Virus record (IMG/VR): IMGVR_UViG_2534682331_000010
DNA length: 28,052 nt
Source of the DNA: a virus
Taxonomy: Duplodnaviria; Heunggongvirae; Uroviricota; Caudoviricetes
Reading direction: 5' to 3' (one strand)
The position numbers are program-made. Below, one piece after another: positions 3,001-6,000 of this stretch (the stretch's first letter is position 1; every line of letters starts with the position of its first letter).

Positions 3001-6000
3001 CTACTGTCTGAAAATATAGAACCAACAGCGGTAAACATATCACTTGAGCCTTCAATAATTGCACAAGATGATGTTGAAGAGTTAGATGAAAAATACCCAC
3101 CAATCACCGTTGCTTGTTTACTGTCCTTTACTCTTAGAGCAGGACCAGTAGCAAGATCTGACATAACGTCAATCAACCATGTCCAATCCACCCCATCAAT
3201 ATCTATTGCTGATAGACCAGCGTCTTCGTAACCGCATGAATAAAATAAGTCACCATGCAACTTAAGCCCCTCTGTAATTGTTGAGACATCTTTTTTTTCA
3301 CATCTAGCATAAAACCCGGAATAACAATCTGAGTATGTATTCATAAGCATTCTTGAGTTTATTTGCCCGCCTTCAAATCTTATGCCCCAACTGCTAGCTG
3401 CAAACCTGTTATGTCTAATATCAAGCTCAGCTGCAGAATACCCTGATGGTGAATATATGCATGCGTTTAAAAAAGAAAATGAACACTCTTCTATCGTAAT
3501 AAGAGCACTCTTAATTAGAAAGCCAACACAATTACTTCCACTCTTTCCATATTTTGATGTAATGTTTAACCCATAAAATCGACTAAACTCAGAACCTTTT
3601 AATAAAATAAAGCAAGCATCTCCGTTTTTTAATTGCGCAATTACACTAAGTTTTTTAGAATCTCCATAAATACAAACCACGCTGTCTATTTCAATATTAG
3701 AAATGTAATACGGTAGGTTATTTCCTGGAACATAAATTTTTTTTGTTTTAGAGCTATCACTCTTAATGGCTTGTATGGCCGAATTAAATGCAGCGCTACA
3801 ATCAGTTCCAGGGATGGCTCCAAAATCAGTTATGCTAATAATCTCTTCATTTTTATCATGTTGTGTAGTGGTTATAGATCCGTCATGCGGCTGCTTTACG
3901 AAAACAACGTGATCATTAACAAGACCTGTTAATGTATCTGATTGTAGTTCACGTTTCAGCATATCAGGGTCATACTTCAGCACATTCGGAAAATAGAACT
4001 GCTGCGAACCGTACGCATCATAAACAGCCATAGAATGGCCTTGCACAGTTACGAACTTGGCAATCTGTCCGTTATATACGGGGTAACCTGCAGCGTTAAT
4101 GATGATTGGTTGCGATACAGGAACGTGAGAGCCGTCTTCGTTCTCTACATAAACCTGAATCTGGTTTTCAGAATTTACCGGGTCAGTGTCAATTTTACCG
4201 ATATAAATTTTGCCATTGGCTACGGCTTTAAAAGAACGAGCCATAGTGAAGAGTTGCGAAGGCATACTCACTACAACATTGGCTGTAATGTCTGTCATTT
4301 AATTTGCTCCAGATACAAGGAATGGCCGCAGCATGGCTACGGTGAGTTTTTTGTGATAAAACAACTTTTTCGGAAGTTATTTTGTTCGCTTTTCGACCTA
4401 CACTTTTTGTGTAGGTCTCTCCTTCAAGCTCATTGCCTAAGCGTGGCTACGGTGAATTTTGGGCATAAAAAAACCCAGCCGAAGCTGGGTCGTTGCGTTG
4501 GTTATCTGTCAGTAGTTATGTACTGAAGGAGGTAATTCTTTATTCTTAAGTCTCATCCATGCGGAAAGATTCGTTGGTCCGTCTGGCTCATTAATATCAA
4601 CATCTCGTGTGTGGTTTATTAAAACGTCTCTCGCCATTCCGATAACATACGAGAACTCATGACCGTAGTCGTAGCATCTGCCGGAATAGTTCGATTGAAT
4701 TTGTTTTAGCGCCGGATACAGTTCGCGGAATAATGCCTGTGAGCGGTTGGCATAATCCCATAACCATACAAGGCTGTTTGCTTCTTTTGCAGAAAGCTCG
4801 TTGGTTTTCTTCTCTTGTTTGCCAATGAACTCACCTTCAAGTGGAACTCGAGCTGCAAGTGACAGTGCTTCGGTAAACTGCTCCTCACTGATTTCTTTGT
4901 ACGAACATCCAAAATGGGATTTCAGTGACGACCACATGGTGATCATCGCCTTAGCCTGTTTTTCTTTTGGCAGAGACTGACCGCGACTCATGACAAGTTG
5001 TTTAATGGCTTCCTGCTGTTCAGTGGTGATTTTACCCGGCAACGCCTTTTTAGCTTTGCGTGGGTTAACTACATGGCCTTTAGTCCAGTACTCGTAGAGA
5101 ACATCGTCACACTCTTCCTGATACTGGATTACCTTGTCGCGGATTTCATGGCGGACTTTGTTAGGACTGATGGTTTGCAGCCAGCCAGCAAGTTTACGAA
5201 GTGCCAAACAAATAATCTCACGGCACTGTTCATCACCAGGAAGCTGCATTGTGATTTTCACAATGGAGGTTTTAAACCGTTACTTTATTTTCGTAAACTG
5301 TGAAGCCCAATCCATACCCATGCCTTCAACGATAGGTTTCATTGGGGTGTACGGCTCACCGTTGTGATTGACAACATAAAGCTCTGCGCCGTGGAATGGT
5401 ACATTGATAGTAGATACTGCTGTTGCTATACTTTTCATGTCGTTAATTCCTATGCGTGGTTTTACGATACCGAAGCCCTGACTGTTACCGCAGTTGGGGC
5501 TTCAACGTTTTGATTTCTTTGCCGCATCAAGCATCACTTCTGAAAACGTGCGCTTGCCACTGAATACTCTTTCTCTTCTCAATTTTTCGTTCGTGCCAAA
5601 TGATTCGCCATGAACAAAATTTGGTCTTAAAATGGTAATCGCAATCTCTTTGACTACTGCATCCAAGCGAATCACACCGTTATCCCCTCTCTCTTCAGGC
5701 TGTCTATCAGGCGCTTGATAACCTCTGAGTTAAACGACCTGCACTCTTCCTTTGCCCTGCTACCGATAGCATCCTTTAACGACTGCGGCATCCTTACCAA
5801 AATCTTACTTATTTCGTTCTCCATGTTACCCTCCACACAAACAACTCTTTTCGAATACAAAAGATAGCAAAGTGAGTATATCTAGTCAAAATTTTTTTGC
5901 ATACACTTTGATATCAAATTGAATACCAAAGGTGTGATATGGCAAAGGGTGTGTCAATTTCTCCAACTACGGTAAGAATCCCTGAATCTTTACGCGAGGC

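Follow-up and report, generated by a model that had tools for sequence, protein, structure and literature searches.

A premature ochre codon in the antirepressor gene ant of a P22-like Escherichia coli prophage, a probable case of recent and lineage-restricted inactivation

The antirepressor gene ant of a P22-like prophage of Escherichia coli has very probably been inactivated by one recent point mutation, which changed CAA (Gln53) into TAA and left behind a pseudogene restricted to a single lineage. The gene is carried by the virus record IMGVR_UViG_2534682331_000010 of IMG/VR, and the whole stretch of DNA that was analysed, 28,052 nucleotides in length, is referred to here as the window. The Q53 ochre mutation is an ordinary recent knockout and not a new regulatory device. 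We infer that Ant activity has been lost and that this loss was tolerated by the prophage or was neutral to it.

On the minus strand of the window, positions 5438 to 4509 form one frame of 930 nt, or 310 codons, and its translation contains exactly one internal stop, the TAA of codon 53 at 5282-5280, in agreement with the preliminary description of an in-frame TAA at this codon of an antirepressor gene. The 5' fragment of ant (5280..5438, minus strand) starts with the ATG at 5438 and comprises 52 sense codons followed by the premature ochre codon (5280..5282, minus strand), and the remainder of the gene (4509..5279, minus strand) continues in the same frame for 256 sense codons up to the natural stop. 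The ORF list likewise bears out that the 52-codon N-terminal part (5438-5280, stop included) shares its frame with a 250-aa body, the latter being a 250-codon ORF (5261-4509) that opens with a GTG six codons past the stop. This GTG (5259..5261, minus strand) is a candidate restart site without a Shine-Dalgarno sequence, and it is followed by an in-frame ATG (5247..5249, minus strand), ten codons after the TAA, which gene callers have used as the start of the deposited 246-aa 'antirepressor protein ant'; a protein look-up with the 250-aa GTG-start product returned no database record. Apart from the TAA at codon 53, translation and codon comparison revealed no further stop or frameshift in ant.

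To judge by its sequence, the interrupted gene is an orthologue of P22 ant. When glutamine is restored at codon 53, residues 12-123 of the protein match the Pfam family P22_AR_N (profile positions 2-114 of 115, E 2e-44, 150.9 bits against a cut-off of 30.7) and residues 209-281 match P22_AR_C (profile positions 1-73 of 73, E 5e-30). The TAA splits P22_AR_N at profile position 42 of 115, with the 5' fragment matching positions 2-42 (E 6e-15), the 250-aa piece on its own matching positions 52-114, and the remainder of the gene encoding the rest of P22_AR_N together with the whole of P22_AR_C. Since both fragments match parts of P22_AR_N, the stop cuts one single domain. P22 Ant (300 aa) is colinear with the two fragments from end to end, being 59-64% identical to them overall and almost the same in its last ~100 residues. 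In the alignment it carries a methionine where the window has TAA. That the two parts might normally be separate genes, an outcome which the preliminary description had itself envisaged, is ruled out by the continuity of the domain and by homologues that are single ORFs, and the two parts are thus one gene. The uninterrupted frame of ~300 codons that characterizes a P22-type Ant is broken here at codon 53, so that the gene belongs to this family as a pseudogene only. A PDB sequence search with the restored Ant produced only chance-level matches to ribosomal protein L15 (E about 0.6).

The surroundings of ant are those of a typical immI region, including mnt, arc, a full-length sar, a terminator and a tailspike gene. 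Upstream of ant lie two divergent genes for ribbon-helix-helix repressors, both with Pfam Arc matches, namely arc (5672..5824, minus strand, 50 aa; Pfam Arc, E 1e-11) and mnt (5939..6187, plus strand, 82 aa; Pfam Arc / FitA-like RHH), and the divergent control region between them contains, upstream of arc, a Pant-like promoter (5861..5889, minus strand) that is a consensus match only. The layout of this control region is the one annotated in P22, and its sequence is identical to that of relatives with an intact ant. The exact Mnt protein is encoded on 233 contigs and the exact Arc protein on 16, and in four related loci this Arc adjoins an intact 307-aa Ant. The antisense RNA sar (5440..5507, plus strand; Rfam RF00262, 81.8 bits against a gathering score of 43, model positions 1-68 of 68) overlaps the translation start of ant, is complementary to the ant leader and ribosome-binding region, and occupies the position of the annotated P22 sar. 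A sar promoter-like site (5404..5432, plus strand; TTGATA-17-TATACT with TG, again a consensus match only) falls within the first ant codons and ends 8 nt before the Rfam start of sar, which is where the sar promoter of P22 is annotated. Between arc and ant there is a 57-codon ORF (5502..5675, minus strand), the GTG start of which overlaps the arc stop codon (GTGA) and has a Shine-Dalgarno pairing of -8.7 kcal/mol; its product appears in relatives as the hypothetical protein WP_000620145.1, matched no Pfam family and has no counterpart in P22. After ant, an intrinsic terminator-like hairpin with a T-run (4472..4491, minus strand) occupies the position of the annotated ant terminator of P22, and downstream of ant the tailspike gene (2475..4298, minus strand), which encodes 607 aa with a P22-type head-binding domain (PF09008), is intact.

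As a whole, the window is a P22-like prophage or phage of the kind represented by E. coli CUS-3, phiv205-1 and Kapi1. It begins at the integrase, and the integrase of its closest relative adjoins a tRNA-Arg gene; no tRNA genes were found in the window. The virion genes that it contains are intact, follow the same order as in the closest relative and, with one exception, are of equal length to their counterparts there. The same prophage has a frameshifted acyltransferase accessory gene, and two A7 tracts in the prophage region correspond to A8 in a relative.

Comparison with intact alleles indicates how the stop arose. Complete E. coli genomes carry, at the matching place, an uninterrupted 930-nt ant of equal length, and the closest of these alleles (E. 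coli W4, Ec15103 and 2013C-4991; 97-98% identical) read ATA AAG CAA CGG where the window reads ATA AAG TAA CGG. Among the loci compared codon by codon, codon 53 is CAA in three and CAG in two, and more distant alleles have ATG AAG CAG. Because the closest alleles carry CAA, the stop is accounted for by a single C>T transition that turned Gln53 into an ochre codon. As to the earlier question whether the stop replaces a conserved sense codon, glutamine occupies position 53 in all close alleles, the 307-aa variants included, and the codon is always a sense codon across 75 diverse family members, but the residue itself is variable among the latter (Q/S/A/R/N/E) and is the above-mentioned methionine in P22. 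Relative to W4, the ant of the window has 16 synonymous and only 2 non-synonymous codon differences, the stop being one of these two, and this pattern, together with the lack of other lesions, indicates that ant was under purifying selection until very recently. The attributes of a recent nonsense pseudogene, i.e. one mutational step, no additional damage and a narrow distribution, are thus found together in this gene.

The integrity of ant among relatives was assessed in the best 80 IMG/VR loci obtained by tblastn, this sequence included. The gene is uninterrupted, with 305-309 codons, in 77 of them, and one is cut by a contig end, so that disruption affects two of the 79 assessable loci, namely this sequence and one other with an independent frameshift near codon 46. 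That ant is intact in 77 of the best 80 loci indicates that the gene is usually maintained and has some function in nature. It has been described that the 'ant moron' varies more than any other part of the late operon in P22-like phages and that ant is degraded in HK620 and Scho1 (PMC2629481), and phage L is devoid of ant and arc altogether (PMC8022706). A further candidate for ant decay, E. coli 730V1, in which a 'P22AR C-terminal domain-containing protein' is annotated, was rejected, the gene in question being a different and apparently uninterrupted antirepressor of the Bro-N type.

Before any biological meaning is attached to the TAA, it should be considered whether the true codon is CAA and the gene intact, the stop being an artefact of sequencing or assembly. 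Homopolymer errors can give rise to differences such as those between A7 and A8 tracts in the prophage region, which makes the quality of the draft a fair question, but the lesion in ant is a substitution and not a change in homopolymer length. Moreover, the window and the Logan assembly of run SRR446899 agree at every base over 6,159 nt, TAA included, and two NCBI assemblies of different siblings have this stop as well: GCA_000357005.2 matches the window perfectly along 5,153 nt, and GCA_000357225.2 retains the TAA while differing from the window by 2 bases elsewhere, and is therefore not a copy of it. The exact 52-aa product is encoded on six Logan contigs, and at least four NCBI accessions contain the 246-aa remnant, named 'antirepressor protein ant' of E. 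coli P0299438.x (for example P0299438.5 and P0299438.11). Bases 5280-5282, for which confirmation in raw reads had been advised earlier, are TAA, and not a sense codon, in these independent assemblies, and an artefact is considered extremely improbable. The P0299438 genomes derive from ten colonies isolated from a single ETEC patient, and six of these colonies make up one group within phylogroup B1 (PMC4462620); the six Logan contigs probably correspond to these six phylogroup-B1 isolates. All carriers of the TAA thus appear to come from the isolates of one patient, which are independent as colonies and sequencing libraries but not as lineages. In one sibling colony the tailspike gene contains a nonsense codon. 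The only other exact 36-mer match in IMG/VR, UViG_2534682327_000011, is 100% identical to positions 1-6226 of the window and presumably represents the same isolate genome. Among 5,426 complete E. coli genomes the best match to the 261 nt surrounding the stop is 98.9% identical, and a metagenome scan that permitted C or T at codon 53 returned only the CAA allele. When one-genome-per-species contigs were searched for the surroundings of codon 53, with degenerate positions, no match was obtained, this collection being uninformative on variation within species. Given that the sibling assemblies share the TAA and that no carrier was found outside the P0299438 set, the stop is taken to be genuine and restricted to one lineage.

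With the stop accepted as real, ribosomes starting at the ATG at 5438 would halt after 52 residues, in the middle of P22_AR_N, and because this halt falls within that single domain no full-length Ant would be made. The 256 downstream sense codons are nonetheless still open and the downstream sequence is undamaged, which speaks for a leaky or programmed readthrough in which the TAA is decoded at low frequency to yield a small, regulated amount of full-length Ant, and any stop codon has a basal readthrough rate above zero. However, a programmed signal would be expected to be conserved, yet this TAA occurs in one lineage and 77 of the 79 assessable IMG/VR loci are intact at this point, with a sense codon in all intact relatives. 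In addition, the sequences flanking the stop match those of intact alleles, which makes it unlikely that a dedicated recoding element has evolved here. In E. coli, termination is tightest at TAA and readthrough least frequent, and the window encodes no tRNA. The readthrough-dependent version of the gene proposed in the preliminary description is consequently not supported, the stop being absent from every relative examined and only one transition away from CAA, and such a mechanism is judged highly improbable. A second way of retaining some activity would be termination followed by reinitiation at the GTG at 5261 or the ATG at 5249, which lie in frame 18 and 30 nt past the stop, to produce a truncated Ant of 246-250 aa that might act, for example, through P22_AR_C. 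Translation in E. coli is classically known to restart behind early nonsense codons, lacI being an example, and the C-terminal ~200 residues of Ant are a separable module, which in nature is joined to Bro-N in two of the related loci and to KilA-N in another, these fusions being located in otherwise identical immI contexts. The calculated anti-Shine-Dalgarno pairing, by contrast, is -2.4 kcal/mol at the GTG and +0.4 kcal/mol at the ATG, not above the background of the gene (-1.9 +/- 1.9 kcal/mol), as compared with -9.8 kcal/mol for arc and the aforementioned value for the 57-codon ORF. In an AlphaFold2 model of an intact homologue (mean pLDDT 84, with values >90 over residues ~20-120), the part that precedes the stop contains strands 9-15, 18-25 and 28-32 as well as helices 33-39 and 44-54, and the part that follows it contains strands 59-64 and 73-79 as well as helices 80-88 and 97-120. 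According to the model, a restart product would thus lack three of the five strands and two helices of the N-domain. In this regard, the model suggests that the N-domain is a single compact unit, and this fits with the only consistent Foldseek matches in the PDB, weak ones (E 0.06-0.5) to the ~100-residue Dachshund/Ski homology domain. The product would also be deprived of 7 of the 18 invariant or nearly invariant residues of the family (V13, F15, L20, M33, G41, W44 and Q47), all of 74 diverse family members start at or before residue 8, and natural variants exchange the whole N-domain and do not delete half of it. Taken together, the missing Shine-Dalgarno sequences, the model, the lost invariant residues and the starts of family members make it unlikely that a restart product is abundant or folds an N-domain. 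Reinitiation at the GTG, as contemplated in the preliminary description, is therefore physically possible, though its pairing is at background level and its product incomplete, and it is regarded as very unlikely to supply Ant activity.

A different question is why the mutation became established. The alternative of a selected inactivation addresses this cause and leaves room for the lesion being a null. According to this alternative, which amounts to domestication or compensation, Ant was harmful to its carrier, either through a defect in Mnt or Arc or through cross-induction of co-resident lambdoid prophages. Loss of ant is the classical suppressor of arc- or mnt-defective P22, and a second accessory gene of the prophage, that for the acyltransferase, is also disrupted. 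Ant is furthermore able to act on heterologous repressors (PMC3121763). Nevertheless, the control region and the Arc and Mnt alleles are normal and sar is of full length, so that no regulatory defect is visible for which the knockout would compensate; the idea that it suppresses a fault in arc or mnt was rejected because the same Arc, Mnt and control region occur beside an intact ant. The window also has intact virion genes, and the lesion is confined to one lineage, with disruption of ant being rare in the family (2 of 79), as is expected of sporadic neutral decay. From the sequence, the intact virion genes and the normal arc and mnt alleles are as compatible with selection as with a neutral and recent loss; it is the lack of a regulatory defect along with the rarity of disruption in the family that favours sporadic neutral decay, and a selected inactivation is considered unlikely. 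A more specific version, in which the knockout was selected within one ETEC lineage, possibly in the patient, by stopping the cross-induction of lambdoid prophages in a polylysogen, is quite improbable, and the same low credence, shared between the two, extends to the idea that a restart product with only the C-terminal module keeps an altered activity. If the selective version were true, the ant mutation, the frameshifted acyltransferase gene and the tailspike nonsense codon of the sibling would together show prophage domestication as it proceeds step by step.

If ant was lost through a recent point mutation, as is preferred here, the consequences would be limited. Mnt, Arc, their shared control region, sar, the ribosome-binding site of ant, the terminator and the tailspike gene are all unchanged around the gene, and the prophage would be expected to retain its primary immunity along with its lytic and virion genes. 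In P22, Ant is dispensable for lytic growth, for lysogeny and for prophage induction. It has been shown for P22 Ant that it binds and inactivates immunity repressors of the C2 type (PMC3121763). This role and the dispensability in P22 jointly lead to the expectation that immI-type anti-immunity and cross-induction are lost while the rest of the prophage stays functional, and the prophage is accordingly predicted to be without immI-type anti-immunity and Ant-mediated cross-induction of other prophages.

The region resembles the immI region of P22 in that its ant combines P22_AR_N and P22_AR_C, is accompanied by mnt, arc, sar and a terminator, and is located between the ejection-protein genes and the tailspike gene; it departs from P22 in the TAA at codon 53, the extra 57-codon ORF between arc and ant, the E. 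coli host and a different tailspike. Early stops with in-frame starts shortly downstream are known from the classical ant nonsense mutants of P22 and from restarts of the lacI type, whereas the present case is a natural clinical allele with candidate restarts that lack a Shine-Dalgarno sequence. It is also comparable to HK620, Scho1 and phage L / ST64T, in which the accessory antirepressor has been lost from a phage or prophage that otherwise looks functional, but unlike these it captures ant at the earliest visible stage of decay, with one point mutation, no deletions and all regulators kept. The broken ant described here adds to the instances of a phenomenon that is already known, and it lends support to the published opinion that P22-like phages can do without their 'ant moron', which turns over rapidly.

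The significance of the finding is mostly one of annotation. In place of the current entry, a 246-aa 'antirepressor protein ant', an ant pseudogene (Q53 ochre) should be annotated, with no gene of its own for the 52-aa fragment. In E. coli HH97, ant has an independent +1 frameshift and is annotated by PGAP as separate N- and C-terminal proteins.

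Three loci that share the arc allele of the window prophage and the same mnt-arc context carry antirepressors with other N-terminal domains, P22_AR_N being replaced by Bro-N in L010 and L017 (292 aa) and by KilA-N in L014 (296 aa). In each case this domain is joined to the same C-terminal part, and nucleotide similarity to the window picks up again at about nt 598 of ant; the N-terminal domains of these antirepressors are swapped at a fixed junction. The P22_AR_N type of ant has itself been frameshifted independently in two other relatives, namely E. coli HH97 (L003), where an additional G after codon ~69 (+1) is accompanied by annotation of the gene as two proteins, and the IMG/VR record UViG_2778261448_000010 (L086), where the frame is lost near codon 46. 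Elsewhere, in E. coli O19:H7 730V1 (L020), an Arc-family gene at 7777-8031 of that locus adjoins the same tailspike gene and bears a pseudogene annotation, its frame containing a stop; a partial Arc-family gene is found farther along. This is a further sign of turnover of immI-type regions.

Between arc and ant the window also contains a 57-codon ORF (5502-5675, minus strand) which P22 lacks, for which no Pfam family was found, and which is near-identical among relatives (WP_000620145.1, one residue different). Its GTG start shares bases with the arc stop codon (GTGA), it is preceded by a strong Shine-Dalgarno sequence (-8.7 kcal/mol), and its 3' end is covered by sar.

The sibling isolate GCA_000357225.2 (L013) differs from the window at two of 5,153 bases, at window positions 4229 and 5027. 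One difference converts tailspike codon 24 from AAA to TAA, and the gene caller then places the start of that gene 89 codons later; the other changes ant codon 138 from Thr to Pro, within a stretch of the gene that is already dead. These two changes represent either prophage decay inside the lineage or errors of the draft assembly.

Flanked by the integrase and tailspike genes, the gene for an acyltransferase (Acyl_transf_3; 1308-2365, plus strand) is divided over two frames. It contains two A7 tracts, at 1510-1516 and 2350-2356, the second of which is borne out by the Logan assembly of run SRR446899, whereas 730V1 has A8 where the window has A7 and possesses an intact acyltransferase gene (364 aa) adjoining the same 607-aa tailspike. 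The split gene could be a second pseudogene, a product of slipped-strand phase variation or a homopolymer sequencing error.

With regard to the fold of P22_AR_N, a Foldseek comparison of the AlphaFold2 model of the intact Ant homologue P0051 (m63e7bca545bf, residues ~10-120) pointed weakly but consistently to the Dachshund/Ski homology domain (about 90-100 aligned columns; TM about 0.55-0.6 on target; E 0.06-0.5).

A Rha-family gene (22111-22653, minus strand; Phage_pRha and ORF11CD3) separates the lysis genes from that for the small terminase. Its P22 equivalent, rha, is annotated as 'anti-repressor', and the window prophage therefore holds a second, intact antirepressor-like gene. Finally, an OmpC-type porin gene of 360 aa (24765-25847, plus strand; Porin_1, E 4e-152), which runs on the opposite strand and has the Q antiterminator gene on one side and the lysis genes on the other, looks like lysogenic-conversion cargo.
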